Assembly (NCBI GenBank): GCA_043775825.1 | Contig: JAYVRX010000108.1 | Location: 1,764-65,763, forward strand | DNA length: 64,000 nt | Source: Deinococcales bacterium | Lineage (GTDB): Bacteria > Deinococcota > Deinococci > Deinococcales > JAAFIG01 | Direction: 5' to 3' | Part shown: positions 1 to 64,000 of the stretch, piece after piece | Layout of the letters: the number at the start of each line of letters is the position of its first letter | Position numbering within the stretch: position 1 is the stretch's first letter | Position numbers and translations under genes: made by a program | Notes under the pieces: generated by a model | What the model was told of the DNA's origin: nothing | The model's database searches: none | The model's input: only the letters and a program-made list of their open reading frames with translations

Positions 1-837
1 CGCGGCGAACGGATTGCGGTGCTCGGACGGAACGGCGCAGGCAAATCGACGCTCGTCAAAACCATGCTCGGTATGATGGCATCCGATAACGCACGTGGGT
101 CACAACGTTTAGGCTCGAGGATCAAAGTGGGTTATTACGACCAGCAATTGCGCGGCGTTGACCCGAACAACACGCTGTTCAAAGAGGTCAAAGAATATTT
201 TGAATCCGATCAGCAAGTCCACGACATTCTGGGCGCGTACACTTTTCCTTATGACGCGCAGTATAAACTCGTCTCGAATTTAAGCGGTGGTGAACGTGCC
301 AGGCTCGCGCTTTTAAAGCTGTCCTTAGAGAAGAACAATTTGCTGGTGCTCGACGAACCGACCAATCACCTCGATATGGAAATGCTCGAGAGTCTCGAGA
401 GAGCACTGCTTAAATTTGAAGGCACGCTGATTATGGTCTCGCACGACAGGCGCTTTATCGAAAACCTGGCAAATCAAATCTGGTTGCTCGAGGAGGGCGA
501 ATTTTACAGCTACCCTGGTGGAGCGCAGTATTTTAAGGAAAAACACAAATCTAAAGTGATTGAAACAAACGAAGAAAAAGTGCTTGCACCCATCAAAGCA
601 CAACCCAAACGCGTGAACGCTTGGAAGTTAAACGCAGAAATCAAAGAACTCGAGAAACGAATTTTCCAACTCGAGACTGAACAAAGCAATATCACCACAG
701 AACTTGGTAATCCAACCGCGCAAACAAATTTTGCCGTGCTGGGCAAACGCGCCGATGAAATCGATGCGGAACTGCTCGAGATTATGGCGAAATGGGAAGA
801 AAACTCGAGTTTGTTGGAAGCGGCGGGGAGTAAGTAA
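1..837 (+). CDS. ABC-F family ATP-binding protein (Uup/YdiF-like), 5'-truncated by window edge
   Basis: Open frame from base 1 (RGERIAVLGRNGAGKST). Walker A, LSGGERAR signature, LLVLDEPTNHLD Walker B, SHDR switch and C-terminal coiled coil. Confidence 0.9.
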   Translation, partial: RGERIAVLGRNGAGKSTLVKTMLGMMASDNARGSQRLGSRIKVGYYDQQLRGVDPNNTLFKEVKEYFESDQQVHDILGAYTFPYDAQYKLVSNLSGGERARLALLKLSLEKNNLLVLDEPTNHLDMEMLESLERALLKFEGTLIMVSHDRRFIENLANQIWLLEEGEFYSYPGGAQYFKEKHKSKVIETNEEKVLAPIKAQPKRVNAWKLNAEIKELEKRIFQLETEQSNITTELGNPTAQTNFAVLGKRADEIDAELLEIMAKWEENSSLLEAAGSK

Positions 838-1022
838 GCGCAGAAAGCTTTACTGATTCAAAATGTCGCGTCATGAGCCAACCCTGATTGCTTTTAAGGT
901 AATTCTTAAGTGATTGACGGTTTGTTTTTAGATTTTAGGATACAGTTCTCAGATTTTATCGCGATTTTGATGTAAAAAACTCAATTTTCACTTTTTTCAC
1001 TCGAGAATTGTGATTATGCAAT

Positions 1023-2726
1023 TTAACGCAGTTGTGGTTGTGTGTTTGTTACACCCCATTCTTGGAGTGAACCTAGTATAAAAGGGTCAGCTTGACTATA
1101 GTCAACGACATAACCTAAATCTTGCATTCCTCCAACAGTTATTTTACTTATATTTTTAGAACCATAACCACCCATAAGGTCATAATATAATCTGCTATTA
1201 CTCCAAGAGCCTGGGCATGAACCATTTGGTAATGTGGGTGGATAATTAGGAGGTAAATTAAAAAAATCATATTGAAATTTAATATTTCCAAGACCACCAA
1301 GGGATTGATACTGACTTACAGCATTACTACCAATATATTCCGACCTTGGATTGCATAGATTTCCAGCTTGAATTTCACTAATTAAATTTTTTTTAATCCA
1401 ATTTACACCAAAACCCAGCACTCGAGCGATATCTCGGGTAATTCTAAGAGTTGCTTCACTCGCAGCAATATCGGCATCACTGGGGTTTGGATTTTGTAAC
1501 AAAGGAAGAATATCTGAAAAATCACTAATGTCATATTGCATAACTCCAATAGCAGGTAAAAAACTATCGACTCGAGTTAAACATGGCTCTATGCGAGACC
1601 TAAAACCACCTAGACCATCACTTTGCTCCTCTGGAATAAGATCAATAAAAATTTTTATATCATCAATGCCCGAAAATTTTGATTGATAATCGATTTTGCA
1701 ATCACCATTCATAGGGTCAAAAATACCGTGCATGTCTGGAATATCGCCTGTGATAATTTTTTGCCAACGATTTACTGCCGCATAAAAATATGGTCGGTAT
1801 TCAAGAGGAACATCTCGGTCAAAAACCAGGTTGATGGTATAATTGGTAGTTTCTTCGGGAAGTGAAAGACGATAATTATCAGCTTTGACATAACTAACGG
1901 TGTAACCTAAATCTGCCATTGATGCAATTGTTAAGCGACTTAACGGATTAAGCTGATAAGGATTTGTACTAGGTGTCAGGATTTCATCTTCAAACATTCC
2001 TTCTGCCCAATGTCCGCAAGTTCCACGTTCTTTTGATGCCGTTAGTGGAACGTTTCCAGTGCCACCTAAAAGTTCGTACTCGTGTTTGGCATTAAGTCCA
2101 GTAAATTCGGGATTTTCGCCACAACGTGTACCATCGGGGGTTGCAAGTTTTAATCCTAGATATAAATCCCAGATTGTTCCAAAACCAAAGGCATGAGCCA
2201 TTTCATGAAGTGTCACATCGGCTAGAAGGTTAAGCTGTTGCGAAGGCGTTGAAACATTTGGAAGATCGGCAGGATCGAATTCTATTTTTGAAATAATCGG
2301 TAAGTTTCTATTGTTCCCTTGGAGTCGCCATTTACAAAGATTAGCGACTGCGGCAGTTTTGCCTGGTCCATCTGACAAATTTTGTTCCTGCTGGTTAGGG
2401 TCAACAATTGTTGGCATTAAACCCACGTATAAAACAACATCATCTACATCTGTGACTGGGGGTAAAACATATGGTGGTGGGATTTGTTCACTGGTAAAGT
2501 GGCAATCTGTTGAATCAGTAATACCTGGAGCATCAACAATGTCGCCAATGATGATCTGTTCCCAAAAAAGCGCTTTTGATTGAACGAATGCTTTGGCTTG
2601 TGTTGGAAAACCAGGTAAAAAACGCAGTTCAATATTAAAACCTGAGGGTGGAGTTGGTGGTGTTGGTGGACAAGCTACCAGCAATAACATTAATACCAGT
2701 AAAAGCATTTGATTTACAAGTTTCAT
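1023..2726 (-). CDS. Lipoprotein with tandem leishmanolysin(M8)-like metalloprotease domains; second domain degenerate
   Basis: Lipobox LLVAC. Domain 1 has HEMAHAFGFG...CGHW...EILT...DLGY; domain 2 has RDIARVLGFG...DLMG...DLGY. Confidence 0.8.
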   Translation of the reverse strand: MKLVNQMLLLVLMLLLVACPPTPPTPPSGFNIELRFLPGFPTQAKAFVQSKALFWEQIIIGDIVDAPGITDSTDCHFTSEQIPPPYVLPPVTDVDDVVLYVGLMPTIVDPNQQEQNLSDGPGKTAAVANLCKWRLQGNNRNLPIISKIEFDPADLPNVSTPSQQLNLLADVTLHEMAHAFGFGTIWDLYLGLKLATPDGTRCGENPEFTGLNAKHEYELLGGTGNVPLTASKERGTCGHWAEGMFEDEILTPSTNPYQLNPLSRLTIASMADLGYTVSYVKADNYRLSLPEETTNYTINLVFDRDVPLEYRPYFYAAVNRWQKIITGDIPDMHGIFDPMNGDCKIDYQSKFSGIDDIKIFIDLIPEEQSDGLGGFRSRIEPCLTRVDSFLPAIGVMQYDISDFSDILPLLQNPNPSDADIAASEATLRITRDIARVLGFGVNWIKKNLISEIQAGNLCNPRSEYIGSNAVSQYQSLGGLGNIKFQYDFFNLPPNYPPTLPNGSCPGSWSNSRLYYDLMGGYGSKNISKITVGGMQDLGYVVDYSQADPFILGSLQEWGVTNTQPQLR

Positions 2727-2774
2727 ATTTTTCCCTTAATACGTTCAGTGGTATCTCGAGTGTCAAACCAACAA

Positions 2775-2796
2775 TGTAAGGTGTTTTAAGATTTTA
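2775..2796. promoter_or_regulatory. Putative regulator box TGTAAG-N6-TAAGATTTTA upstream of protease paralog 1
   Basis: Same motif occurs at 4651..4672, at near-identical distance (49 vs 50 bp) from the paralog start codon. Confidence 0.55.
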
Positions 2797-2909
2797 CAAG
2801 TACGAGACTGATAAAGTTGAACAAGTTATAACTAAATTTAAAACTCGAGAAATTTTATTTAAAACAAATTTAAGTACCTTAAAACTCATGTTTCGATAGA
2901 AAATGAGAC

Positions 2910-4601
2910 CTAGGTGCAACCAAATGGAAAGCAAGGATCAGTTGGTAACTGTGGTTGTAAATTAATTGGGTCAGCAAGAGAATAGTCAACTGTATAACCT
3001 AAGTCTTGCATTGCCCCGAATGTTACCTTACTTAGTGCACCTGAAAACCATCCAAACTGTGGATTTGTAGAATACGTTCCACCACCTCCCATAAGTTCAC
3101 CCAAATACCTCTGTCGCTCCCATAATTCAGGGCATTTTTCAGGTGGTGTGTTGGGTATGTAAAATATTTGCTGTCGAAAAATAATATTGCCAAGACCGCC
3201 AAGCAATTGAGCTTCACGTACCGCATTGCTTCCTGTATATTCCACGTTGGAACTGCATAAACCATTGCCAGTATAGCCACTGATAAAACCTTTTTTTATC
3301 CAGTTTGTTCCAAAACCAAGTGCTCGAGCGATACTTCTAGTAAAATTAAGAGTGGTGGCATTTGAAGGAGATTCTGGACTGTTAGAGGCATAAATGTGAG
3401 GAAGATACTCATTGCTGTATTGAATGACTGCAATTTCAGGTAGAAAACTTCCAGCCCGAGTTTTACATGGTTCGGCACGGTATTTTAGACCATTTGGTCC
3501 TGCGCTTTGGGCGGCAGGAATAATTCCAACATAAATAATAATGTCATCGACACCAGAAAACGGCGCTTCATCGGGAATATTGCAATCACCTGAGGCTGGT
3601 TTGAAAACACTATTCGAGTTTGGAATATCGGCGGTAATAATATTTTGCCAACGTGCTGCTGCTGCTTCAAAATGCGGTTTTAATTCATTTGGAAAGTCGT
3701 TAGAATAAAACCATTCAATGTCAAATCCTGTGTTAACGTCAGCAATAGGCAGTGAATAATTATCGGCAATACTGTAATCGACGGTGTAACCTAAATCTTG
3801 CATGGATGCGATTGTTAATCTGCTGACTGGATTATTTTGTCCTGGAATTGGTGGAGTTGCAGCTGGATTTGGAGCTGGGGTCATCATTTCTCGGTCAAAT
3901 AATTTTTCTGACCAGTGTCCACAAGTTCCATTTTCACTGCTTGCTTTAAGTGGAACGTTTCCTGTTCCTCCTAAAGTTGCATATTCGCGTTTGGCGTTGA
4001 ATCCCGTAAATTCGGGGTTGCTGCCACAAGGTGTGCTATCTGGGGTTTTAATGTAGAGACCTGGAAATTGATCCCAAACAGTTCCAAAGCCAAGCGCGTG
4101 ACCAACTTCGTGAATGGTAGCGTCTTTTAATAATTCGGGTTTATTTGTTGAATAATCGTCAAAGTAAGCTTTATTAAAAAATAATGTTGACATGAACGGT
4201 AAATTCTGATCTAAAGTTCCCAGACTTCGTACTAAACAAGGACCAGCATTGGCAATAATGCCATCTGTGGCATTTATGTCTTTGTTCATGCCTACATAAA
4301 GAATTAAATCATCTATATGTGGTCGGGTTTGAAGTGGATATGCTACTGCAACTTGTTCTGAGGTAAAGTTACAAATTGCTGGATCGGCTGGGTTGGTTGT
4401 GTTGTTAAAATCTGCGATGTCTGCAACAATAATTTTTTCCCAGTATTGTACAACTTGTTCCATAAATGGTTTAAATTGAGTTGGGAAATTATCGAGATAA
4501 ATAATTTCGATGTTGAATTGCGAATTAACAGGTGGTGTTTGTGGGCATGAAACAAGTGCTGCTAATAAAAGCAATAGAAACCCTCGAGCTACATTTTTCA
4601 C
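2910..4601 (-). CDS. Paralogous lipoprotein with tandem M8-like domains; second domain degenerate
   Basis: Lipobox LVSC. Domain 1 has HEVGHALGFG...CGHW...EMMT; domain 2 has RSIARALGFG...ELMG. Colinear with 1023..2726. Confidence 0.8.
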   Translation of the reverse strand: MKNVARGFLLLLLAALVSCPQTPPVNSQFNIEIIYLDNFPTQFKPFMEQVVQYWEKIIVADIADFNNTTNPADPAICNFTSEQVAVAYPLQTRPHIDDLILYVGMNKDINATDGIIANAGPCLVRSLGTLDQNLPFMSTLFFNKAYFDDYSTNKPELLKDATIHEVGHALGFGTVWDQFPGLYIKTPDSTPCGSNPEFTGFNAKREYATLGGTGNVPLKASSENGTCGHWSEKLFDREMMTPAPNPAATPPIPGQNNPVSRLTIASMQDLGYTVDYSIADNYSLPIADVNTGFDIEWFYSNDFPNELKPHFEAAAARWQNIITADIPNSNSVFKPASGDCNIPDEAPFSGVDDIIIYVGIIPAAQSAGPNGLKYRAEPCKTRAGSFLPEIAVIQYSNEYLPHIYASNSPESPSNATTLNFTRSIARALGFGTNWIKKGFISGYTGNGLCSSNVEYTGSNAVREAQLLGGLGNIIFRQQIFYIPNTPPEKCPELWERQRYLGELMGGGGTYSTNPQFGWFSGALSKVTFGAMQDLGYTVDYSLADPINLQPQLPTDPCFPFGCT

Positions 4602-4672: not shown

Positions 4673-4783
4673 GTCGGAAAAAGTGTGGCAAAACCGAACA
4701 CGTTACAGCCAAATTTGAAGCTCGAGAATATGTTTAAGTGCTTGATTCACCACATTCTCGAGCAAAACTTTAACCCTAATTTA

Positions 4784-5119
4784 TTATTGGTCAAAACGAT
4801 TTTCAATTGGCAGGGTTTCACCATCATTCAAAGCTCGAGCCAGATTCAAAATCTTTGGAAAATCCAACCCGTAATACCAGGCTTCCTCGAGATTCCCAGA
4901 CTCGAGACTGTGGTAACAGGTGGCGTTTGGACCAAATTGGCACGCGCCCAAACAACCCGTTTCGGTCAATCGAACATGACCGCCAGAGTAATAAGCCAGT
5001 CGCTCACGCTCGAGGGTATTCCAGAGCGTTTGAAACAGACTTCTCGAGCCTTTGGCAGCGCATTTTTCGGAGGTGCAAACTAGCAGATGGGCGCGGGTTT
5101 TGAAAAAATTGGGTTTCAT
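4784..5119 (-). CDS. Thioredoxin-like (2Fe-2S) ferredoxin
   Basis: VCTSEKC...GCLGACQFGP Cys pattern; overlaps pabB stop by 4 nt. Confidence 0.8.
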   Translation of the reverse strand: MKPNFFKTRAHLLVCTSEKCAAKGSRSLFQTLWNTLERERLAYYSGGHVRLTETGCLGACQFGPNATCYHSLESGNLEEAWYYGLDFPKILNLARALNDGETLPIENRFDQ

Positions 5120-7940: not shown

Positions 7941-8044
7941 GCTTTCCTTTTTGAGACTCTTGGGTGTCTGAGTGATTTTTGAAAATGAACGAACGATATT
8001 TATTTCCTCATGTCAATCAAGTTTTTGGCGTTTAACCTCGAGCC

Positions 8045-8455: not shown

Positions 8456-8457
8456 GA

Positions 8458-10250: not shown

Positions 10251-10271
10251 GAACATCCTCAAGAATTCAAT

Positions 10272-10299: not shown

Positions 10300-10371
10300 C
10301 ACCGTCAACATTCAAGTTAAATTCAAACCCACCAACCCCTTTCACTCGAGAGGCGCAACCCAGGCGGTTGC

Positions 10372-38374: not shown

Positions 38375-39754
38375 TTATTCCTGAGCTTCAATGCGGTTAA
38401 AGCCTTTTGGCGCTCCGACCTTATCCGCAATCACATTCTCGAGGTACTTCACCACGTTTTTTAATGGCACACGGTTCAGCACATCCTCGAGGAACGCCGT
38501 GACCAGCATTTTCTCGGCAATTGGCTTGGGAATGCCCCTCGAGCGCAAGTAAAAGAGTTCCTGCGCGTCCACAGGACCTGTGGTGCTGCCGTGAGAGCAC
38601 CGCACATCGTTGGCGTTGATCTCGAGTTGCGGCACGCTGTCGGTTCGCGCTTCATCGGACAGCAACAACGTGCGGTTTTTCTGGTACGCATCGGTTTTTT
38701 GGGCGTTCAATTCGACTTTAATCAAACCCGAAAACACAGCCCTTGCCTTGTCCGTCACAACACCCTTGAACAACAAATCTGAGTGTGCTCGAGGTTTGAG
38801 GTGATGCTGAAGCGTGTAATGGTCAAAATGCTGGTCTTTGTCGGCAAAGTACACCGCCAGCATTTCTGAATTCGAGTTTTCAGACAGTGCCGTCTGAACT
38901 TCCGAACGACTCAGCGTCGCGCCCATTGTGACGTACAAACTGTTCAGAGTCGCATCACGCTCGAGGTTCGATTTGATGCGTTGAATGTGCGTGAAACCGC
39001 GACCCCAGTTTTGAATCGCCACGTAACGCAAGTTTGCGCCCTTGCCCAAGAACAATTCGACCACGCCAAAGTTTGCGGCTTTCAAATCTGGGCTGTCCTG
39101 CTCGTCAATGTACGTGACTTTCGCGTTGTCCTCGAGCACCACCAACGTCCGAGAAGCCGTAAACGTTCCTTCCTGGTCGAGGTAACGGAAACCACCGAGC
39201 GGCAACTCGAGTTCGACATTTTTGGGCACGTACAAGAAAAAACCGTTGTCCCAAAGCGCGGCGTTCAGTGCCGTGAACTTGTCTTCGTCTAAATTAGGAA
39301 TCGCCTCGTAACGCTCGAGCGCCTGCGCGGTTGGGGCTGGGTACGCCGCGCCCACGACGCTGTACAAATACTTTTGCACCAATTCAGGATGTTTTTCGAT
39401 GGCTGTCTTTAAATCCGTGAAAATAACGCCTTTTGCCGCCAGTTCCGCAGGTACATCCTTAAAAATCACGCTTGAACCAGAAAGCACAATCCGTCCTGCT
39501 GCGTCCGTAGAGGAGAGACGATCACGAATTTTCGTGGGCAGTTCATCTAGGCTCGAGACTGCTGGTACGGGTTGGGCTGGACTGAAATTCTCGGGTTTGA
39601 ACCGTCGCAGGTTGGTGTACTTCCAAGATTCCACAGCCGTCGTTGGGATTTTACGGTCATGGTAAATCTCGAGGGCGGAAAGTCGGGCGGACTCGAGCCA
39701 TGCGGGTTCGTTGAGGCTCGAGATGGTGAAGGGGGATTGGGTTAATTGGGTCAT
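38375..39754 (-). CDS. sufD: Fe-S cluster assembly protein SufD
   Basis: ESWKYT, AVFSG.I, QKTDAYQ, PQLEI.ANDVRCSHG, FYLRSRGI. Confidence 0.9.
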   Translation of the reverse strand: MTQLTQSPFTISSLNEPAWLESARLSALEIYHDRKIPTTAVESWKYTNLRRFKPENFSPAQPVPAVSSLDELPTKIRDRLSSTDAAGRIVLSGSSVIFKDVPAELAAKGVIFTDLKTAIEKHPELVQKYLYSVVGAAYPAPTAQALERYEAIPNLDEDKFTALNAALWDNGFFLYVPKNVELELPLGGFRYLDQEGTFTASRTLVVLEDNAKVTYIDEQDSPDLKAANFGVVELFLGKGANLRYVAIQNWGRGFTHIQRIKSNLERDATLNSLYVTMGATLSRSEVQTALSENSNSEMLAVYFADKDQHFDHYTLQHHLKPRAHSDLLFKGVVTDKARAVFSGLIKVELNAQKTDAYQKNRTLLLSDEARTDSVPQLEINANDVRCSHGSTTGPVDAQELFYLRSRGIPKPIAEKMLVTAFLEDVLNRVPLKNVVKYLENVIADKVGAPKGFNRIEAQE

Positions 39755-39775
39755 ATTAGATTCCTTAAAACATGA

Positions 39776-40180
39776 TTATTTTTTTAATTTTTTTACAGCA
39801 AAATCGCCAAGTTTAACATCTTCGATTTCTCGATCAAAGGTTTCACCAGGCGTAGTTATTTCAGTTACTGGATTTTCACCGAGAAAATTGAACAAAGTTC
39901 CGCCTGAAGTCCTTTTAATCTCTCTTTTATCAGGTCTTTTGGAAATCTCAATTGATCTAATGGTTGTTATATTGTCTTGAATATGTACTGGAGAGGCTTG
40001 TCCTTTAAATATTTCAAGCTTTTCAAGCTCTTTATTAGTCTCAGGATCAATTATTATTTCACCTATTTCAATAATTGAAAATACATCTCCTTTTAAAACC
40101 CCATCTTTTGAACCCTGATTTATTACAAATTTAAATCCATCAATAACTTTAACAATTTTTGGACTATTTTCAGGTATCAT
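39776..40180 (-). CDS. Hypothetical protein, FlgT-C-terminal-like beta barrel, AT-rich
   Basis: VINQGSKDGVLKGDVF...IIDPETNKEL pattern; overlaps the upstream gene. Confidence 0.6.
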   Translation of the reverse strand: MIPENSPKIVKVIDGFKFVINQGSKDGVLKGDVFSIIEIGEIIIDPETNKELEKLEIFKGQASPVHIQDNITTIRSIEISKRPDKREIKRTSGGTLFNFLGENPVTEITTPGETFDREIEDVKLGDFAVKKLKK

Positions 40181-40676
40181 TTAAACCTACCTCCTCAAAC
40201 ATTTTAATCATTTCTAAGGTTATCGAATTTCTAAAAAATAACTTTTCTAAAGTTTTTGTATGATCTTTTTTTAAGTATTTTAATGGTTTTATCTGTAGAT
40301 AATCGCTTTGTGTCCACTGAACTGATCCAATAAAAACAGGAATTTCAAATTCTGAATCTTTTTCGTAGCAAACAGCTACAACGTTATTTGAAAATATTGG
40401 ATTTTTTCTAACAAGATACAGATTATATTTTTCTTCATACATAAAAGGGACTGCGTAGTCAAATATTTCACGAGTTTCATTTTTTTGTGTAAAAATATGA
40501 CTTAGGAGAACTGAGATAAGAATCAAAGAAAGAGTTGCCGAAAAAAGCAATATTTTCACTGGTATCTGAGAATTCACATCGACAAACATAGTCACAATAC
40601 TTGACATAAATCCTAAAACGCCAATAAGTATTGATAATCCGTTAATTGAGAAGGCAAATTTCGTAATTTTTGTCAT
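40170..40676 (-). CDS. Hypothetical membrane protein (2 N-terminal TM helices + beta domain), AT-rich
   Basis: 168-aa ORF in very AT-rich DNA; two hydrophobic helices at about residues 9-58. Confidence 0.65.
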   Translation of the reverse strand: MTKITKFAFSINGLSILIGVLGFMSSIVTMFVDVNSQIPVKILLFSATLSLILISVLLSHIFTQKNETREIFDYAVPFMYEEKYNLYLVRKNPIFSNNVVAVCYEKDSEFEIPVFIGSVQWTQSDYLQIKPLKYLKKDHTKTLEKLFFRNSITLEMIKMFEEVGLNDT

Positions 40677-40725
40677 GTTTACAATTCTTTATACTTAATG
40701 AATTTATATTTGAATTTCAACAGCT

Positions 40726-41018
40726 AAATTTGGTAATTACTCAACCCACCCCTCGTTATGAAACTATCGTGCTGCACGCGCTTGAAAATAGCCAAATTTT
40801 GCGAATTTATTCCCTCGAAATAAACCAAATTGAGTCTTCAATTTAATTTCGCCGTTCAGTACAGCATGGAACTAATTTTTATTGAAACCCTTGAGAATCA
40901 AGGAGTGATTTATTCTTAGATTTTCGATAAGGTGCGTTTAAAGTAAGAATCGTTTTGAGTACGCTATTTTTACTTAAATGCGAGTTGGAGTTATTCGGGT
41001 TGAGTAGTTACTAAATTT
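40726..41018. mobile_element. Putative MITE / IS remnant with imperfect terminal inverted repeats
   Basis: AAATTTGGTAATTACTCAACCC (40726..40747) vs GGGTTGAGTAGTTACTAAATTT (40997..41018): 20/22 inverted match; no ORF of 60 aa or more inside. Confidence 0.55.
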
Positions 41019-41086
41019 GAGTAGATTTACTAAAAAATGTAAAAATGTACTTTCTAATTTTTAGAGTCTGCAAAAAATCGAATTTT

Positions 41087-41299
41087 TTACTTAAACCAAG
41101 TTGTGCTGCCAAATTCTTTGGTTGTAGTTTTGCCATTTAAAATTTCAGTCAGTCCTTCTTGAATTGCTTTAGCTTCTTCAGCACTTAACTCTTCGTTTCC
41201 AGCAGGATGAACACTTAAAAGTAATTAGTACTCTTCGAGAGGCAATAAAATAAAGGTTCGCCCTATTTCATTGGTAATTTGTTGATGTGCTGCGATCAT
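41087..41299 (-). pseudogene. Pseudogenised paralog of antitoxin 41682..41939
   Basis: MIAAHQQITNEIGRTFILLPLEEY*LLLSVHPAGNEELSAEEA aligns with MIAG...IVLPLEEYQALLGIYPDDDEELTEEA; in-frame TAA at 41227..41225 replaces Gln; AGGAGG RBS retained. Confidence 0.75.
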
Positions 41300-41406
41300 T
41301 CTTACCTCCTAAAAATTTAATTCTCGAGATTACGCAAACTCGAGTTCTGCTGTTCTGCCTGGTGTTGGGTCTTGTGCAACTACAGCTTTCACCAATGCCT
41401 TGCGTC

Positions 41407-41685
41407 TTACTTTATCTTGTAAATATTTTTACGATGTCCAACTTTACGAACTTCCAACAAGTGTCCGTCTCGAACAAAAATGACCCGTAAATTCCCAAAA
41501 CTTAAACGGTAATGCCCCTTAAATTCACCCTGCATTTGTTTTATATCACCTCGAGCTTCCGCGCAAAGACTTAGAAGAGCATCCCAAACTTGTTCTTGTT
41601 CAAAGCGTTCGAGTTTACTAAATTCTTTTTCGGCGCGTTTCACAAATTGTAAGTAATAAGGTACATCTCGAGGGTTAATACTCAT
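41407..41685 (-). CDS. RelE/ParE family toxin
   Basis: KRAEKEFSKL, DIKQMQG, YRLSFGNLRVIF, VGHRKNIY. Confidence 0.85.
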   Translation of the reverse strand: MSINPRDVPYYLQFVKRAEKEFSKLERFEQEQVWDALLSLCAEARGDIKQMQGEFKGHYRLSFGNLRVIFVRDGHLLEVRKVGHRKNIYKIK

Positions 41686-41939
41686 GGTTTGATTGGGAAT
41701 TGTTGAGAGAGATTGAACTTAATTTGCATTTCTTCAGCGCTAACAACAGCATTACTGTTGCTTTCTTCGGTAGCAAGTCGTAAATCAAGTGCGGCTTCTT
41801 CGGTTAATTCTTCATCATCGTCTGGGTAAATGCCTAAAAGTGCTTGGTATTCCTCGAGCGGCAACACAATATGGGTTTTATTTCCTCGAGCATCACTGAG
41901 ATACTGGTGATTATCTTGTTCTTGAATACCTGCGATCAT
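41682..41939 (-). CDS. Acidic antitoxin (cognate of RelE-like toxin)
   Basis: YLSDARGNKTHIVLPLEEY motif, acidic tail, 4-nt overlap with the toxin. Confidence 0.7.
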   Translation of the reverse strand: MIAGIQEQDNHQYLSDARGNKTHIVLPLEEYQALLGIYPDDDEELTEEAALDLRLATEESNSNAVVSAEEMQIKFNLSQQFPIKP

Positions 41940-41981
41940 GTTTTGCTCCTTTCAATTATGCAAACTCGAGCTTTACTGCTC

Positions 41982-42161
41982 TTACAAATATTGAATGTTT
42001 TCCATAAAAGCAGCGCGTTCTTCTTCGGTACTGTCAGCTAATTCTCGAGCGAGTCGCTTCAGATTTTCTCGGCGGTGTTGCAAAAGAATTTGGTTGAGCC
42101 ATTCAAGTTCTGCTTCGCTCATTTTCTCAATTTTTTCGTGCAAATGTTCTTTGACACTCAT
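41982..42161 (-). CDS. 59-aa orphan paralog of antitoxin 42630..42896
   Basis: MSVKEHLHEKIEKMSEAELEWLNQILLQHRRENLKRLARELADSTEEERAAFMENIQYL; GAGGTG RBS; shares the N-terminal helix pattern and RENLK.LA...T.E...AF; below the ORF-track cutoff. Confidence 0.65.
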   Translation of the reverse strand: MSVKEHLHEKIEKMSEAELEWLNQILLQHRRENLKRLARELADSTEEERAAFMENIQYL

Positions 42162-42219
42162 GCTTCACCTCGCTTCGTTTAATTCAGCCCATTCAAGAAG
42201 TTTTCCAACATGCCTCGAG

Positions 42220-42633
42220 TTATCCTTGATTTCTTTCAATCCAATTCTCGAGTCGAATGTTCGGAACTCGAGCGAAATGCTTGGTGTTATCTGTCACCAG
42301 AATCGCACTTTGATTTATAGCTGTAGCGGCAATAAGTGTATCTGTATCCTCTAGTAATGTGCCTTGCTTTTTTAAGTGCTGGTAAATTAATACTGCTTGT
42401 TGTATTACGTTTCGATCTAATGGGTAAACAATAATATCTTCAAGCCAATCATGAAATCTCGAGTACTTCTTTTGATAATAGGGGAGTTCTAAACCGCGCT
42501 CAATCTCAAAATAAGTCATATTGCTAATGGTAAGAATGTGTCCGTCACTGTATTTTTGATCGAAAGTATCGGTAATGTTTTGATTTTCATTGACTATTTC
42601 GGAAATAACATTGGTGTCTAAAACGTATTTCAT
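42220..42633 (-). CDS. vapC: VapC family PIN-domain toxin
   Basis: YVLDTNVIS, E, DTLIAATA, LVTDNTKHFARV..L.LENW. Confidence 0.88.
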   Translation of the reverse strand: MKYVLDTNVISEIVNENQNITDTFDQKYSDGHILTISNMTYFEIERGLELPYYQKKYSRFHDWLEDIIVYPLDRNVIQQAVLIYQHLKKQGTLLEDTDTLIAATAINQSAILVTDNTKHFARVPNIRLENWIERNQG

Positions 42634-42896
42634 GGTTGAAATTCAATTGGTTTTCGGCGTAATGGACGACGTTTTACAGCTTCGTTAAACGCAGTTAAAT
42701 CTTCACCTGTTGGTTCGGCTAAGGCTTTCAAGTTTTCTCGAAACCGTTCTATTTCTTTTGGTGTGCGTTGTACTCGAACATCGGGTAAGTCTGGGTATTT
42801 AAATGCAGGGTCAGTGTCAATCACTTTTTTCAGTCGCTCGAGACTTGTTTTGGTCATGTGGTCTATTCGTTCAATGATTTCTTCTCGCATGGTCAT
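42630..42896 (-). CDS. Putative VapB-type antitoxin
   Basis: Start MTMREE at 42896 (GAGGAG RBS); 4-nt overlap with vapC. Confidence 0.65.
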   Translation of the reverse strand: MTMREEIIERIDHMTKTSLERLKKVIDTDPAFKYPDLPDVRVQRTPKEIERFRENLKALAEPTGEDLTAFNEAVKRRPLRRKPIEFQP

Positions 42897-42928
42897 GATT
42901 TCACTCCTCTCGAGCATTCTAAACGGCT

Positions 42929-53071: not shown

Positions 53072-53105
53072 GGCTTCAGCATCTTTGTCTGGCGTATACT
53101 GAGCT

Positions 53106-54163: not shown

Positions 54164-54254
54164 ACTGGTATTTTACGCTCGAATTGCCTCGTTTTCAAAC
54201 GGACTTGAAAATTATAAAGCTCTTTTCAAACTTCCTGTGTAGAATCAAGTCTCA

Positions 54255-55820: not shown

Positions 55821-55832
55821 AAATCTCCTCAG

Positions 55833-58048: not shown

Positions 58049-58073
58049 ACGTGAGTTTTATTGTAGAAGTTCC
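58048..58073 (-). promoter_or_regulatory. Putative autoregulatory ECF promoter GGAAC-N17-CGTA
   Basis: Minus strand GGAAC (58073..58069), 17 nt, CGTA (58051..58048); matches the general ECF AAC/CGT consensus. Confidence 0.6.
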
Positions 58074-58140
58074 CGAGCGGCTTGGATAGGGGAGGACAGT
58101 TGGGGTTGAGTAAAACTTGGTTACCTTCTCATAATCTCTC

Positions 58141-59124
58141 ATGCAGCGCCTCGAGAATGCTGGTGTGAAAAGTGTTGCTCGAGGTTTATTGGTTTTGGCT
58201 GCCGTTTTGGTTTTAGCGTATTTGATTTGGAATCCAGGTTCTAGCGTTACTTACGGTCAACACGATCTGGGACGCAACGGAATTTGGCTTGGACACGGTT
58301 GGCTTGGTGATGACGATTGGTTTAACGAAAACGCTCGAGATACAACAAAATTTCGATCTCGAGTCGCAATTCTCGCACTCAAAAACGAACTCGATTCGCA
58401 TGGAATTCGGGATGTGTTTGGGCATCTCACGCCAACGAATTTAGATGGCAAGATTCCAGAAGTAGATGCAAACCAAACCAAATTGTTTCTCGAGTTGCTT
58501 CCCAACAAGCGGGTCATGCCTTGGCTTGGTGGTGTGACTGGTAAAACAGTTTTCTTATCCTCGAGCCAATGGCGCAAAAACTTTGTCTCGAGCACCAAAA
58601 ACCTGCTCGAGCGATTCCCAGATTTTGCTGGAGTTCATCTCGATTTTGAACCGCTGCCCAATCAAGACCAAGGTTTTCTCGAGTTGCTGCTGGAGCTTCG
58701 AGTGGCAATCGGTACGAGCAAATTGATTTCTGTTGCCACACCAATTCCAAAAGTTGGATTTTGGGGTTGGGACAAAAGCATGTTTTTAAAAGTCTCGAGC
58801 AATACTGATCAAATCGTACCAATGCTTTATGACACGCATATCCCGCTCGAGAAACCTTATGTTGCATTGATGGCATTCTGGACTCGAGAAATTCTTGATT
58901 GGAGCAATGGCAAAGAAGTTTTACTGGGCGTTCCAGCCTGGGACGAACCCACAGCATCACACAAACCGAAAGTCGAAAATCTTAAAAATGCCCTGCGCGG
59001 AATTCATGCGGCGCTCGAGTCTGAAATACCAAAGAATTATGCTGGGATCGCGCTGTATGCGCACTTTACAATGAAAGCCTCGAGATGGAAGGTGCTCGAG
59101 ACCGAATTTAACCGCAAGCCGTAA
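58141..59124 (+). CDS. Membrane-anchored GH18-like TIM-barrel protein
   Basis: N-terminal TM, GVHLDFEP, DQIVPMLYD, LLGVPAW. Confidence 0.65.
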   Translation: MQRLENAGVKSVARGLLVLAAVLVLAYLIWNPGSSVTYGQHDLGRNGIWLGHGWLGDDDWFNENARDTTKFRSRVAILALKNELDSHGIRDVFGHLTPTNLDGKIPEVDANQTKLFLELLPNKRVMPWLGGVTGKTVFLSSSQWRKNFVSSTKNLLERFPDFAGVHLDFEPLPNQDQGFLELLLELRVAIGTSKLISVATPIPKVGFWGWDKSMFLKVSSNTDQIVPMLYDTHIPLEKPYVALMAFWTREILDWSNGKEVLLGVPAWDEPTASHKPKVENLKNALRGIHAALESEIPKNYAGIALYAHFTMKASRWKVLETEFNRKP

Positions 59125-59148
59125 TTTAGCGTTTTTTGGTCGCTCGAG
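59122..59148 (+). repeat. Direct repeat copy 1 flanking GH5 gene
   Basis: TAATTTAGCGTTTTTTGGTCGCTCGAG; 26/27 identical to 60758..60784. Confidence 0.8.
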
Positions 59149-59228
59149 TCTTTAAATTTGCCCTTCAAGAACCATGTATCACAAGCGAAGCCTCGAGCAC
59201 CACACGACACTGGCTTGGATGTAACAGT

Positions 59229-60650
59229 TCACTTAAATAACGTGTTCAACAAATTGGTACGCCACGCTTTGTTCACTGGATCGTACAAACCGGCGTTGTA
59301 ATGAAACTCCCAGTATGCCCAACTGATGCCTCGTTTTTCGGCTTCTTCGCGCACGAATTTTGTCCAACGAACTCGAGAAGCCATGTCCGCAAATTCAAAC
59401 GCACCAAATTCGCCCATAAAAATCGGACGCTTGTTGGCTTGTCCCCAAGCGGCAGCGGTGTTTAAAACATCACGAATCTGCCCTTCAGGATTCATAATTA
59501 AACTGGTTGTTCCATTTGTGCCAATCGCCTCGAGTTTTTGAAATGTAATTTTGGGGTTTTGGTCATAATAATTTTTTTGAACCCAGACATCTTGAAAGGC
59601 TGTACCATCGCCACAACTCGAGAGGGATACGTCTGTTGGAACGTTTGCCAAAGCCTGAACCCGAAAATACTTGGGTTGATTGTTGGTTGCACCATTTTTG
59701 ATGATGCAGCTTACGCCCAGTTCAACGTCACGGTTGGTTTGAATGCGCAAGCTCGAGTAACCACTCATTGGGCTATCGTTGTGTAGGTTCAATCCGCCGT
59801 TCTGCTCGAGGTATGTGACTTCTAGCCCAGATTGGCTCGGTGCAGTTTTCGCACCGAACGAGTAATCTTGCCAAGGTCGGTTAATCGAGATTTCTTGGGT
59901 GGGGAACAACACGCCTGTTGGTAATGCAGGAGTATACCAGGGTGCGCCCTGATGGGTGAACTCGACGGGTGCGTAATTGTGTACCGTAACGATCAAATTT
60001 TGGTCGTCTGGTAGACGTAAGTCTGCCAAACGGTTTGCACTGTTGTAACCAACCGAACCGATGATGACAGTACGATTCGGATTGGTTTTACGCACCACCG
60101 CTAGCGCCTCAGCCGCATATTGATTCCACAATGGCTCGAGTTTTTTTTCTGGTTCGTTATGCAATTCAAACAGAACGCTCGAGGGTTGAGACTTGTAACG
60201 TTCTGCGATTTGTGTCCAAAGTGCTAAAAAGCGTTCTTTATTGGCTTGGGGTTCGTCCATGAGTTCGTAGTAATGGTGAAAATCTACTATAATTGCCAAA
60301 CCACGCGAGGTTGCGGTCTGAACCGCCCAATCTACCCGTTCCATAAATGCTGGATCGAGCGTATAAGGTGCGGTTTTTGATGCGTGATTGCTAAATTTAA
60401 CAGGCAGGCGAATGGCTGTAAAGCCGGCAGTCTTGACCAGATCGAAGTACGTTTCCTCGAGCTTGGAAGCCCATTCGCCTTCGTTCGGAGCTTCGAGCGC
60501 ACTAAAATTGATGGTTTTTGCCAGGCGTTTGTTTGCCTCCAGTGCTGTGTTGTAGGCGATTTCGGAGGCGCTCAAGATTGGTGCGCCGTTTGAATTGCAG
60601 GCGAACACGAAGGTTGTGACAATGCAGACCGCTAGGTTTAATTTCCCCAT
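59229..60650 (-). CDS. Glycoside hydrolase family 5 lipoprotein with inserted beta domain
   Basis: Start MGKLN at 60650; lipobox FAC; IRLPV, HNEP acid/base, FTHQGAPW, MGEFG nucleophile, WAYWEF. Confidence 0.88.
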   Translation of the reverse strand: MGKLNLAVCIVTTFVFACNSNGAPILSASEIAYNTALEANKRLAKTINFSALEAPNEGEWASKLEETYFDLVKTAGFTAIRLPVKFSNHASKTAPYTLDPAFMERVDWAVQTATSRGLAIIVDFHHYYELMDEPQANKERFLALWTQIAERYKSQPSSVLFELHNEPEKKLEPLWNQYAAEALAVVRKTNPNRTVIIGSVGYNSANRLADLRLPDDQNLIVTVHNYAPVEFTHQGAPWYTPALPTGVLFPTQEISINRPWQDYSFGAKTAPSQSGLEVTYLEQNGGLNLHNDSPMSGYSSLRIQTNRDVELGVSCIIKNGATNNQPKYFRVQALANVPTDVSLSSCGDGTAFQDVWVQKNYYDQNPKITFQKLEAIGTNGTTSLIMNPEGQIRDVLNTAAAWGQANKRPIFMGEFGAFEFADMASRVRWTKFVREEAEKRGISWAYWEFHYNAGLYDPVNKAWRTNLLNTLFK

Positions 60651-60757
60651 ACTCGAGGTTAAAGTCTTTGAGTGAATCCAAACTGAGGTAAATATGAAAA
60701 TGCACTTTAGAAACTCATGAATGTCCGTTGCAGACATTTAGAGCATCCCGTAGGTAA

Positions 60758-60784
60758 TAATCTAGCGTTTTTTGGTCGCTCGAG
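60758..60784 (+). repeat. Direct repeat copy 2 flanking GH5 gene
   Basis: TAATCTAGCGTTTTTTGGTCGCTCGAG. Confidence 0.8.
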
Positions 60785-60943
60785 CCTTCAAAACTGTGGC
60801 ACAAGAAATCCCCGCGTGCTTGGCGACTTCTAAACTCGTGACGCGTCTGTCGCGTTCCATTTTCTTTTCAGACTTCCTGAATTTCAGCCGTTTGACTCCA
60901 ATTTAGTTCATTCTGACACTTGCAACCGCGTGAATGACAATCT

Positions 60944-62323
60944 TTAAACCGCAATCAGCTCGGCTTTTGATTTGCTGGCAATATTGGGAATCATGCTGCC
61001 ATGAGCGGTGAGCAAATCGTCAACCAGGTTGTGAATTTGATCCAAATCGAGTTCGGCTGCCGTGTGCGGGTCCATCATAGCGGCGTGATAAACGTGTTCG
61101 CGTTTGCCAGTCAGGGCAGCTTCGGCGGTCAGTTCTTGAACGTTCACGTTGGTTCGCATCATGGCGGCAAGTTGAGGGGGTAACATGCCAATTTTTGTTG
61201 GTTGAATACCGTTTTTGTCCACCAAGCATGGCACTTCAACGCAACAATCGGCGGGTAGATTGTCAATCAAACCCCTGTTTGGAACATTGCCGTAAATCAC
61301 CCTGGGTTGACCCGTTTCCAGGCTGTGAACAATCAAACTGCCGTATTCGGCGCTGCGTTTGACCTCGAGTTTTTTGTTTTCATCCTCGAGTTCAGCCCTT
61401 AAAGTTTCCCATTTGGCAATGTTCAGCTCGCAACGGCGGATGTATTCGTCAATCGGAATGTTGAAACGCTCGAGCAAATCTGGGCGGTTTCCTTTGATAA
61501 ACCACGGCGTGTACTCGGAAAAATGCTCAGACGATTCGGTGACAGAGTAACCAAAATGTTTTAAGACTTGATACCGCACGGCATCGGTCAACCCCCAAGG
61601 CATGTCGGCGGTCACACGGTGCGTGAACTTGCCGCGCTCGAGAAATTCGCGCAGTTTTGGGTACAGGTTTTCTTTTTTGCCGTCTTGGTGGTGACGCTCG
61701 AGGGTCAGATAAAACGCCATGTGGTTGATGCCCGCCACCAAATAATGGACTTCTTCTGGCGGAATGCCTAAATCTTGCGCCAGTTCTTTGGCGGTGTGCG
61801 GCACGCTGTGGCACAAGCCGACCAGTTTGATCTTGCTGGCTTTTGAAAGCGCCAAGCAATTGATTGCCATTGGGTTGACGTAATTCAGGTGCAGCACATC
61901 AGGGCAGACCCGTTCCATGATGCGGGTGTACTCGAGCAGCACGGGTATGGTGCGTAAGCCGCGCATGATACCGCCGATACCCAAAGTATCGGCAATGGTT
62001 TGTTGCAAACCGTGCTTTTTGGGAATCTCGAAATCGATCACGGTAGAGGGCTTGTAACCGCCGACTTGAATCATACTGATCGCATAATCAGCGCCGTCCA
62101 GTGCTTGAATTGGGTCGGTGGTGGCGACGATTTCGGGTTTGACCCCCAGGGCTTCTGAGATTTTTCGCGCCACGATCTGGGAGGTTTTCAAACGTTCAGG
62201 GTCAATGTCGAACAAAAAGATTCTCGAGTTTGAAAGTTCTGGGTAACTGAGAATGTCGCCCAGCAAATTCTTGGCAAAAACCGTGCTGCCCGCACCGATT
62301 AGGGTAATTTTGGCTTGTCTCAT
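60944..62323 (-). CDS. melA: GH4 alpha-galactosidase/alpha-glucosidase
   Basis: Start MRQAK at 62323 (AAGGAG RBS); IGAGS.VF, NYVNPM, GLCHSV, GINHMA, TESSEH. Confidence 0.88.
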   Translation of the reverse strand: MRQAKITLIGAGSTVFAKNLLGDILSYPELSNSRIFLFDIDPERLKTSQIVARKISEALGVKPEIVATTDPIQALDGADYAISMIQVGGYKPSTVIDFEIPKKHGLQQTIADTLGIGGIMRGLRTIPVLLEYTRIMERVCPDVLHLNYVNPMAINCLALSKASKIKLVGLCHSVPHTAKELAQDLGIPPEEVHYLVAGINHMAFYLTLERHHQDGKKENLYPKLREFLERGKFTHRVTADMPWGLTDAVRYQVLKHFGYSVTESSEHFSEYTPWFIKGNRPDLLERFNIPIDEYIRRCELNIAKWETLRAELEDENKKLEVKRSAEYGSLIVHSLETGQPRVIYGNVPNRGLIDNLPADCCVEVPCLVDKNGIQPTKIGMLPPQLAAMMRTNVNVQELTAEAALTGKREHVYHAAMMDPHTAAELDLDQIHNLVDDLLTAHGSMIPNIASKSKAELIAV

Positions 62324-62841
62324 AGGGTAAAACTCCTTTTTATAATGCTCAAAAAAACTCGAGAGACTGATTATCATTTTGGTTTGATCATTCTTGGGAA
62401 TGATCCTCGAGCTGCCAAGAAAAACCAGAAATTGGCTTTTTATAACTTCCCGATTTCAAGCTAATTCGGGTATTGTCACATCATTTCAGTTTGGCATGAC
62501 CTCACCGCACACAATCCCCGTACACTCCTTAAACCCAATCGGACACTTTCGACCCGTCAAATACATCTTCTCCAAACAACGCACAATCGCCTTTAAGCCC
62601 GTACTTGTACAAATCGTTACACCATTTTAACACCATGCCCGGTAACGCCCTCGTGACCTGCGGAAGGAAACTTGTGCTCAATCGGATTAAACCTCGAGCG
62701 GTACGGCGGATAATGCGTTGTCTGATTCTACTCACACGCAAGAAAAAAAACGAGTATACTACTGGTTCATTTCCAGCATTTTCAAGTTTGTTTGGGGCGG
62801 TCACTCGAGCAATAAACTTTTGGCATAGAGACGAGGCTTTG

Positions 62842-63135
62842 ATGTACGCACGAATCATTACCAGTCAATTGAAAATCGGAATGCTTCAACAAGCCATCAG
62901 CATCTGGCGGCAATCGATTGTGCCTAGCCTTAAAAACACCAAAGGTTTTCAAGGCGGTTACATGACCAGCGATCCAAACACGGGCAAGGGCATGGTCGTG
63001 ACCTTATGGGAAACCCAAGCCGATGCCAGCGCGATGGATTTGAGCGGGCTGTATCAACAGTCCATTGATTTGCTGGTCAATCTGTTGATCGCGCCGCCCA
63101 GCCGCGAACAACTCGAGGTGACCCTTAAAGTTTAA
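62842..63135 (+). CDS. ABM (dimeric alpha-beta barrel) family protein
   Basis: MYARI...GFQG...VTLWET pattern; GAGG RBS; 97 aa. Confidence 0.65.
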   Translation: MYARIITSQLKIGMLQQAISIWRQSIVPSLKNTKGFQGGYMTSDPNTGKGMVVTLWETQADASAMDLSGLYQQSIDLLVNLLIAPPSREQLEVTLKV

Positions 63136-63139
63136 GCAC

Positions 63140-64000
63140 TTAAATTTTGACCACGCCAGCCTGAACCACGCTGATTGGGTTGCTCGAGGCGACCCGATTT
63201 TTCCCATTGTTTTTTGCCTCGTACAAGGCAGTATCGGCGCGTTGCAAGAGTTTTGAAATACTTTCGTTGTTCTCGAGTTGTGCCACGCCCAAACTCAAGG
63301 TCACAGTTAAAGTTTCAGCCTCGAGTTTAAACGTGTGGTTAGCGATTTGCAGCCGAATTTTTTCGGCGACCACACTGGCTTCCTCGAGCGAGGCGTTTTT
63401 TAAAATCACCAAGAATTCTTCGCCGCCCCAACGCACCACCGTATCCACCGCCCGAACGGTACTTTTGGCGAGTGCGATGCCGTCCTTGAGCACCGTATCG
63501 CCGCCCGCATGACCGTAGGTGTCGTTGATGGTTTTAAAGTTGTCAAAATCGAATAAAACCAAGCTAAACGGGCGTCCATTTCGCAATGATTCCTTAAGGG
63601 CTTGCTCGAGCAGCGTCTCGCCGATGGAACGGGTTTGGGCTTCGGTTAGCGTGTCAACCGTGGCAAGTTTCTCGAGGCGTTTTTGGTACTGATTGATGGT
63701 TAAAAAACTCAAACCGAGCACCAATGCGGTGGCGAGCGTACCGACTGCCAGATTTAATAAAAATGAACGCAATAATGGCGCAAATGCTCCAGCCTCATCC
63801 TGTTCGATCAGCACAAACCAATCCAGTTCTGGAATGTACCTCGAATTGACCTGCACCACCGTGCTCGACTTTTGATACGAGGTACGCTGCGGGGTTTGGG
63901 TGTTGCCAAGAATCTGTGATGCGATGCTCGCCATGCCCTCGAGCTTGGCGATGTTGCCTTTTAACTGGAGTTGGCTGTTGTTTGCCAGCACGATATTGCC
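63140..64000 (-). CDS. Membrane sensor diguanylate cyclase, 5'-truncated by window edge
   Basis: Periplasmic segment, TM, DFDNFK.INDTYGH..GD, RWGGEEF, ADTALYEAK..GKNR. Confidence 0.9.
   Translation of the reverse strand, partial: GNIVLANNSQLQLKGNIAKLEGMASIASQILGNTQTPQRTSYQKSSTVVQVNSRYIPELDWFVLIEQDEAGAFAPLLRSFLLNLAVGTLATALVLGLSFLTINQYQKRLEKLATVDTLTEAQTRSIGETLLEQALKESLRNGRPFSLVLFDFDNFKTINDTYGHAGGDTVLKDGIALAKSTVRAVDTVVRWGGEEFLVILKNASLEEASVVAEKIRLQIANHTFKLEAETLTVTLSLGVAQLENNESISKLLQRADTALYEAKNNGKNRVASSNPISVVQAGVVKI

Follow-up and report, generated by a model that had tools for sequence, protein, structure and literature searches.

The closest known relatives of the element treated here are the highly iterated palindromes (HIPs) of cyanobacteria, HIP1 (GCGATCGC) and the alternate HIPs (GGCGCC, GCsGC, rCCGGy, GGGATCCC and TCGATCGA). 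The DNA uptake sequences (DUS) of Neisseria and the uptake signal sequences (USS) of the Pasteurellaceae are asymmetric words of 9-12 bases that occur about once per kb, frequently paired in inverted orientation at terminators; their maintenance is ascribed to biased transmission and selection. In Escherichia coli, Dcm/Vsr repair is tied to a methylated palindrome (CCWGG) and shifts words towards the recognition site; this effect is small. Here, we analysed a stretch of 64,000 bases from a Deinococcales bacterium (positions 1764-65763 of contig C108 in genome G000; hereafter the window) with respect to the hexamer CTCGAG, whose frequency had led to a comparison with HIP1 and uptake sequences in a preliminary description made from the letters of the window. 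We show that CTCGAG is a HIP-type palindrome and that the force behind it is specific to one uncultured Deinococcales family and two basal Deinococcaceae genomes.

As HIPs are described in two accounts (PMC4390886; PMC5861425), they share with CTCGAG that a short exact palindrome exceeds expectation far more than any other word of the same length, that its enrichment extends to each reading frame as well as to non-coding DNA, and that it spreads by substitution and not by insertion. They also share conservation between genomes beyond that of the codons and an occurrence throughout a lineage with exceptions among close relatives. The defining statistical and evolutionary features of HIPs are found in CTCGAG: it ranks first among hexamers with an over-representation above the level of about 15-fold that marks HIPs, it is enriched in every frame and between genes, and it is conserved between genomes. 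HIPs are also described as periodic on a scale of 10-90 kb. In other respects it differs. It belongs to the phylum Deinococcota, has only six bases with a guanine-plus-cytosine (GC) content of 67%, and occurs at 6,363 copies per Mb, whereas 300-2,700 per Mb are reported for HIPs (PMC4390886). The alternate HIPs are characterised by Elhai by a GC content of at least 75% and 1,000-2,000 copies per Mb (PMC4390886); CTCGAG lies outside both ranges, which are descriptive and not mechanistic features. HIP1 is accompanied by the methyltransferases DmtC and DmtA, whereas no clade-wide cognate methyltransferase was found among the 19 genomes of the window's family. Also unlike HIPs, CTCGAG has a measurable effect on the whole proteome (Leu-Glu is raised 2.4-fold) and stands in a background nearly free of other palindromes, including CGATCG.

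The hexamer is absent from the main text of Elhai 2015 (PMC4390886), and a search of full-text papers in one literature library did not find a published description of CTCGAG as an over-represented motif. A preprint (bioRxiv 10.64898/2026.06.24.734251) has CTCGAG among the methylated motifs of hot-spring communities; it does not speak of the abundance of the motif or of this clade. The trait may have gone unnoticed because the whole family consists of uncultured, metagenome-assembled genomes (MAGs).

CTCGAG enrichment is a signal at the level of DNA

The window contains 441 copies of CTCGAG (6.9 per kb). In 100 dinucleotide-preserving shuffles the mean was 9.60 (standard deviation 2.75) and the largest count 18, and none reached 441. 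The preliminary description had spoken of hundreds by eye, which is correct; its chance figure of about 15 per window was of the right order of magnitude, and its hand counts, 8 sites in 1..840 and 7 in 4721..5048, proved exact. The two segments that were counted by hand are, with open reading frames (ORFs) called greedily:

19-837, plus strand: fragment of an ABC-F ATPase gene (NCBIfam ABC-F), with CTCGAG at 114, 385, 394, 487, 649, 670, 775 and 804.
4721..5048 (328 bases): mostly non-coding stretch between ORFs ending at 4601 and 5116, with CTCGAG at 4721, 4757, 4834, 4886, 4901, 5009 and 5043.

The window is part of a MAG of 4,544,080 bases in 194 contigs of up to about 95 kb, with a completeness of 79% and a contamination of 3.9%. 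No other hexamer is as frequent in this genome as CTCGAG, whose 28,914 copies (6.36 per kb) make up 3.8% of the sequence (28,914 x 6 bases), where base composition predicts 1,125. The next-ranked hexamers, TCGAGC and GCTCGA (11,940), are overlaps of CTCGAG itself, and the second palindromic hexamer by over-representation, TTTAAA, has an observed/expected ratio (O/E) of only 3.17. Each of 1,537 windows of 5 kb contains at least seven CTCGAG, and the O/E is 21-27 throughout the GC classes. The genome-wide comparison with several nulls that had been proposed at the outset gave 25.7-fold over base composition, 8.2-fold over a synonymous-codon shuffle for the coding sites, and only 1.19 for the maximal-order Markov null. 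We rejected the latter as uninformative, because the pentamers CTCGA and TCGAG occur almost solely inside CTCGAG (28,914 of 32,935 CTCGA).

For the analysis of reading frames, genes of G000 were called by a greedy longest-ORF scheme, an approximation used without a gene finder, which gave 3,869 ORFs of at least 100 amino acids covering 87% of the genome. Within the window 223 sites are in the frame CTC-GAG, 80 in xCT-CGA-Gxx and 89 in xxC-TCG-AGx, and 49 are intergenic. The corresponding numbers for the whole genome are 14,719, 3,988, 5,813 and 4,389, with five sites on ORF boundaries. The density is higher in intergenic DNA (7.47 per kb) than in coding DNA (6.20 per kb). When synonymous codons were shuffled within genes, which preserves the protein and the codon usage of each gene, 2,979 sites were left (standard deviation 54, five replicates) compared to 24,556 observed; by frame, the excess is 6.7-fold in CTC-GAG and 12- and 13-fold in the other two. 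Shuffling the order of codons left 1,294. Altogether, CTCGAG fills 24,534 of 42,414 opportunities in which it could be written without a change of protein (58%), with fill rates of 72% at Leu-Glu, 45% at [STPA]-Arg-[VADEG] and 44% at x-Ser-[Ser/Arg].

The signal extends to the proteins. G000 encodes 20,352 Leu-Glu dipeptides where 8,591 are expected (2.37-fold), and 72.4% of them are written CTCGAG; Ser-Ser is raised 1.61-fold, whereas the reversed dipeptide Glu-Leu is at 1.01-fold. At positions where G000 has a CTCGAG-encoded Leu-Glu, the dipeptide is also Leu-Glu in 361 of 1,222 cases (29.5%) among Deinococcus-like orthologues, compared to 42.4% identity for all dipeptides, a comparison that is pseudo-replicated, most of it being copies of one region from about 40 genomes. 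The other dipeptides found there include Leu-Asp (14%) and Ile-Glu and Val-Glu (about 5% each). These data show that the force behind CTCGAG drives amino-acid replacements towards Leu-Glu and Ser-Ser.

A trivial explanation would be that CTCGAG is a by-product of Leu-Glu usage combined with codon preference, a dispersed repeat, or a product of XhoI-related junctions. The frame CTC-GAG does hold 60% of the coding sites, the same frame accounts for 248 of 261 sites in sampled orthologues of the moderately enriched Thermus-, Meiothermus- and Truepera-like relatives, and the low Markov ratio would also agree with a by-product. However, the excess over the synonymous shuffle is largest in the two other frames, and no class is denser than intergenic DNA. 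In the window's family CTCGAG encodes Leu-Glu 15.7 times as often as predicted from codon usage, compared to 1.7-2.0 times in the Thermus-, Meiothermus- and Truepera-like families and 0.2 times in Deinococcus-like genomes. A dispersed repeat resembling repetitive extragenic palindromes or miniature inverted-repeat transposable elements is ruled out, since 28,840 of the 26-base contexts of 28,894 sites are distinct and the flanks carry little information. An artefact of XhoI libraries or assembly junctions is ruled out as well, since genomes that were assembled separately, 19 in all and one of them a single contig, carry the sites at orthologous positions. The by-product or artefact explanation is refuted by the codon shuffles, the uniqueness of the contexts and the orthologous sites, and we give it practically no probability. 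The preliminary description was right that sites occur in all three frames and between genes, every class being enriched, and that amino-acid usage is insufficient as a cause; the outcomes it had named as refuting, loss of the enrichment once codon usage is controlled for or its confinement to one frame, and XhoI junctions, are not what was found. The enrichment of CTCGAG is a signal at the level of DNA, of which neither codon usage nor amino-acid usage is the cause.

Inter-site gaps in G000 are near-geometric with a 3-base periodicity (mean 156, median 114, maximum 2,529 bases). Below about 20 bases the sites repel each other, pairs 7-14 bases apart being reduced to 0.04-0.5 of expectation. 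There is a modest peak just past stop codons (11.8 per kb); spacers contain 9.3 (convergent), 8.5 (tandem) and 6.9 (divergent) sites per kb, and transfer RNA genes are poorer, with four sites in 42 genes (1.25 per kb). The flanks are weakly symmetric (AAG-CTCGAG-CTT) and alike within and between genes; A at position -2 has a frequency of 0.45 against a background of 0.27, and the scarcity of G at this position also prevents the formation of GAGCTC. No word that differs from CTCGAG by one base exceeds one fourteenth of its frequency. The most frequent of these words differ from it by a transition (TTCGAG 1.86-fold, CTTGAG 1.28-fold, CCCGAG 1.15-fold), which fits decay products of CTCGAG. A hotspot of the Chi type was considered and excluded, since CTCGAG is its own reverse complement and no orientation is possible.

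Distribution in the Deinococcota and retention between relatives

A 16S ribosomal RNA gene was not found in the G000 MAG and relatives were therefore sought via SufB, which is encoded in the window:

42929-44356, minus strand: sufB, highly conserved, with 10 CTCGAG (7.0 per kb); the marker for relatives and for the tree.

The closest SufB relatives are uncultured MAGs named "Deinococcales bacterium", followed by Deinococcus and then Trueperaceae. CTCGAG was counted in 364 whole Deinococcota genomes, with rounded genome sizes and with G327 left out. Motif-rich are 21 of them, i.e. the 19 genomes of the window's family and two basal Deinococcaceae (G156 and G157); the remaining 343 are motif-poor. 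By lineage the counts are:

Window's family (f1; five genera, GC 44-62%): 19 of 19 genomes rich, 12,028-35,442 sites per genome, 4.3-6.8 per kb.
Deinococcus-like genus (g7; 111 genomes): 26-1,372 sites per genome.
Thermus-, Meiothermus- and Truepera-like families (f2, f4, f5): 0.3-3.5 per kb.

Deinococcus-like genomes avoid CTCGAG, the opposite direction from their sister family. G156 has 16,253 sites in 1.9 Mb (8.6 per kb) and G157 has 24,536 in 3.5 Mb (7.0 per kb; a 100-kb sample with a GC content of 0.51 contained 742), whereas G158, which is placed in the same genus, has 683 (0.3 per kb). Between G157 and G158 the identity of SufB is 92%, and either protein shares 82-84% with that of G000. 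Since G157 is rich and G158 poor despite this identity, the determinant looks like a gene that is gained and lost. The window's family forms a clade in the SufB tree (support 98/97) and is sister to the Deinococcaceae (100/97); G157 is the first branch inside the Deinococcaceae and G158 the next, with weaker support (83/69). One gain and one loss, or two gains, agree equally with this tree. The trait is clade-specific within the Deinococcota, the phylum that the preliminary description had guessed.

In another family, a 20-kb segment of G342 (L465, G342:C1:1-20000; GC 0.52) has 2.65 CTCGAG per kb (O/E 10), in all frames and in spacers; G342 may carry a weaker form of the same trait.

Retention of sites was followed in positions 44001-64000 of the window, aligned to five genomes of the same genus with 85-86% nucleotide identity; the five comparisons share the window and are not independent. 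Third-codon identity is 0.876-0.93 within sites and 0.67-0.685 outside, and intergenic identity is 0.96-1.0 within and about 0.83 outside. As whole sites, 80.2% are kept in coding DNA (n=481) and 92.3% between genes (36/39), compared to about 42% for hexamers in general; all six genomes have 39 of the 93 site positions in common. Where a Leu-Glu is conserved and written CTCGAG in the window, the relative has CTCGAG in 202 of 221 cases (91.4%), while dipeptides of Leu plus a twofold-degenerate residue, a control of the same degeneracy, retain their hexamer in 176 of 451 (39%). Where a conserved Leu-Glu is written otherwise in the window, the relative has CTCGAG in 25 of 51 cases (odds ratio 11). 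High retention together with frequent gain points to a directional force that both protects existing CTCGAG and makes new ones, and the retention at synonymous and intergenic positions supports the lineage-wide creating or retaining force that the preliminary description had postulated. At deeper divergence, sites shared at conserved Leu-Glu are as many as expected by independence (203 vs 195.4 within the family, 57 vs 56.1 for G157 vs G000), i.e. site sharing is at a saturated steady state.

Genes and acquired segments of the window

Outside the segments already described, the window contains the following features that bear on the distribution of CTCGAG or identify its genes:

1023-4601, minus strand: two paralogous ORFs of about 565 amino acids with a weak match to Leishmanolysin (Peptidase_M8); GC 0.39, six CTCGAG (1.7 per kb).
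7065-10262: btuC-, btuD- and btuF-like ABC transporter genes, downstream of a cobalamin riboswitch.
10361-10501, minus strand: cobalamin riboswitch (48.4 bits), with CTCGAG at 10462 and 10476.
35703-36946, plus strand: gene for MglB (NCBIfam Thermus-type MglB, E 9.5e-73), followed by one for a small Ras/Arf-like GTPase.
38375-39754: sufD.
39723..41322: largest CTCGAG-free gap of the window (1,606 bases between the sites at 39717 and 41323); low GC, two small ORFs with no Pfam match.
41323..42928, minus strand: toxin-antitoxin cassettes with 14 CTCGAG, each toxin with a small upstream ORF.
41407-41685, minus strand: ParE-like ORF (22.7 bits, just under the cut-off).
42220-42633, minus strand: PIN-domain toxin (Pfam E 8e-14).

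The cobalamin riboswitch exemplifies CTCGAG within functional non-coding DNA, and MglB and the GTPase are predicted from their sequences to be a polarity pair of the MglA/MglB type. Because of their low GC content and their few CTCGAG, the paralogous ORFs at 1023-4601 are probably a later acquisition. The suf operon is split between sufD and sufB by a 3.2-kb insert of low GC content (0.353; 39755-42928), of which the first 1.6 kb are without CTCGAG and the remainder has 14 despite its low GC content. The gap at 39723..41322 is probably the most recently acquired patch.

Possible forces behind CTCGAG

What could create and keep these sites? We tentatively favour the view, while giving it somewhat less than an even chance, that CTCGAG is a tag of self-DNA, read by a putative sequence-specific protein during DNA exchange and spread by preferential transmission. 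In such a mechanism an exact six-base palindrome with weak symmetric flanks would be read by a dimeric protein with a specificity like that of restriction enzymes, and the gene for this reader would be open to gain and loss. CTCGAG would act as a "self" tag between relatives, either when DNA is taken up or afterwards, in the survival and recombination of the DNA inside the cell, and tagged alleles would be transmitted preferentially (molecular drive), so that new sites spread and old ones stay protected. A role in transformation, together with molecular drive, is now proposed for HIP1 as well, in the account given in PMC13756078. Like DUS and USS, CTCGAG is genome-wide and clade-specific, has an exact core with weaker flanks, and burdens the proteome by its occurrence within genes in every frame. 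Tag reading does not require a methyltransferase, which is consistent with none being found family-wide. The presence of ComEC (18 of 19 family genomes) and DprA (five of five examined) is compatible with DNA exchange. A narrower version, a methylation-independent system of self-DNA recognition with a six-base palindromic uptake or recombination tag and a putative receptor of its own that was gained or lost between G157 and G158, is doubtful.

Neisseria and Haemophilus, which are naturally transformable, are among the lineages in which many restriction-modification genes go together with few palindromes. The family genomes are rich in restriction-modification genes, with restriction-enzyme genes adjoining methyltransferase genes, and of the 64 palindromic hexamers in G000, 48 have an O/E below 0.5 and 29 below 0.1. 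In its 4.5 Mb there are 176 GGCC, no CGGCCG, 8 CGATCG, 9 GAGCTC and 10 GCGCGC; the window has no GAGCTC, no CGATCG and six GGCC. Genera of the family with a lower GC content avoid GGCC strongly, those with a higher GC content weakly. CTCGAG goes in the direction opposite to this avoidance of restriction sites, and an endonuclease of the XhoI family was not found in the 19 genomes.

Several observations weigh against a self-DNA tag. CTCGAG differs from DUS and USS in being a six-base palindrome, at 6.4 per kb, and in that its close pairs are depleted: at a gap of 8 bases there are 7 pairs where 176 are expected, and for gaps of 10-14 bases the ratio to expectation is 0.2-0.4. Thermus and Deinococcus are not known to prefer particular sequences when they import DNA. 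ComEC and DprA are widespread, also in bacteria without known competence, and are not specific to biased uptake; the bias and its receptor are putative. Any function under purifying selection would account for the positional conservation just as well, and the genome-wide evenness may be overstated, since binning of the MAG may have discarded atypical islands. No phage of the window's clade was identified among the matching viral contigs listed.

Viral contigs with three close CTCGAG sites amounted to at least 120 loci, and the dense ones have a GC content of 64-72%. By a phase test based on third-codon-position GC these are codon-driven, with 0-3 sites per contig in the unambiguous xCT-CGA-Gxx phase. 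The sole exception is L335, 9,493 bases of an IMG/VR contig with a siphovirus structural module, in which CTCGAG (42), GAGCTC (24) and CGATCG (21) are over-represented. It was rejected as a phage of the window's clade, its portal protein having no relative in 41 Deinococcales genomes and GAGCTC and CGATCG being avoided by the family. A prophage with an HK97 capsid above the cut-off was found in none of the 19 family genomes.

A second possibility is that a CTCGAG-specific methyltransferase marks the sites, which would be kept by a repair ratchet, as in Elhai's model for HIP1, or by the use of the mark in mismatch repair, in replication or in the protection of incoming DNA. A sharp exact palindrome is what methyltransferases read, and a cognate enzyme is reported for every cyanobacterial HIP in the account of PMC4390886. 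Moreover, the presence and absence of the trait in G157 and G158 fits a mobile gene, the family has many methyltransferase genes, and CTCGAG is methylated in hot-spring communities according to the preprint mentioned above, there not for this clade. However, across the 19 genomes no family-wide orthogroup was found among PF01555, PF02384, PF07669, PF12950, PF00145 and PF02086, where the clustering covered the matches that came with loci and the MAGs are incomplete. Matches to PF01555, PF02384 and PF00145 from six genomes gave no orthogroup spanning more than three of them. PF01555 was not found in the closed, single-contig genome G011 and PF00145, the C5 enzyme, not in G008, which is 91% complete. 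TaqI_C-type enzymes are present in six of the 19 genomes; Eco57I-class matches occur in 18, yet their orthogroups, among the 40 loci clustered from 78 match rows, span two to four genomes each.

Individual enzymes fared no better. G000 has methyltransferase matches at nine loci. Its two C5 methyltransferases have close orthologues in only one and two other genomes, respectively, and its N6/N4 enzyme of 673 amino acids has close relatives in two family genomes and in one Deinococcus-like genome. Two D12 groups, present in seven family genomes each, were rejected as writers since both adjoin genes of type II restriction enzymes and are ordinary restriction-modification pairs. The specificity of methyltransferases is not readable from sequence here and non-orthologous enzymes could share one specificity and substitute for one another.

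Against the repair ratchet in particular, Vsr was found in none of the 19 genomes and the C-to-T deamination products TTCGAG and CTTGAG are not depleted but rank above expectation. In these two respects, in the lack of a universal C5 methyltransferase and in the size of the effect (25-fold), CTCGAG is unlike the Dcm/Vsr case. The methyltransferase-coupled repair suggested in the preliminary description found no support, and the co-distributed methyltransferase or Vsr genes it had proposed to look for were not found family-wide. We regard a methylation-linked force as unlikely.

As a side observation, a D12 methyltransferase found in seven family genomes (L409, G011:C1:1608208-1611954, and relatives) is followed by an ORF with a weak SacI match (E 0.0078, below the Pfam cut-off). 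GAGCTC is nearly missing from most family genomes, with 0-25 copies in 15 of 19.

Third, CTCGAG may be the site of a lineage-specific nucleoid or chromosome-organising protein, its density being selected for chromosome structure, an idea put forward for HIP1 by Xu et al. (2018); such a role is argued for HIP1 in PMC5861425. The conservation in coding and non-coding DNA, the even enrichment across GC classes and the minimum of seven sites per 5 kb would suit such a protein, and the repulsion below about 20 bases, together with the symmetric flanks, would suit a footprint larger than the core. On the other hand, nucleoid proteins usually tolerate degenerate sites, whereas one-off variants are rare here. 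The spacing is near-geometric and not regular, and the cost would be heavy, with 3.8% of the genome and about 12,000 additional Leu-Glu dipeptides. An architectural role is therefore distinctly unlikely in our judgement.

Finally, a quirk of polymerase, repair or gene conversion could turn near-cognate sequences into CTCGAG with no benefit to the cell. The sharing of sites at deep divergence looks like that of an attractor, gain is frequent at conserved Leu-Glu, and the density peaks just past stop codons, where constraint is lowest. But within the genus sites persist by descent, at Leu-Glu far above the controls and also between genes, which pure replenishment does not predict. A Vsr-like gene was not found in the 19 genomes, and we know of no enzymatic precedent for a bias so strong and specific, which counts against this explanation. 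A drive by biased conversion is hard to tell apart from the reading of a self-DNA tag. A bias free of any function is very unlikely.

Whatever the force, a HIP-like motif is present in a new phylum, and it is denser than HIP1. A genome of which about 4% consists of one hexamer affects k-mer binning, codon models, dipeptide statistics and XhoI-based cloning and mapping. HIPs have so far been cyanobacterial and their function has been debated for three decades; here is an independent case with a different word at two- to twentyfold density, a clear imprint on proteins, sister lineages that go in the opposite direction, and a close pair of genomes with and without the trait (G157 and G158). A gene that tracks the 21 motif-rich genomes would be a candidate for the reader, hence the question is open to comparative testing. 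If CTCGAG is a self-DNA tag with its own receptor, it would be the densest such tag known, and the family would provide a second independent system for the 30-year-old question of what highly iterated palindromes do.

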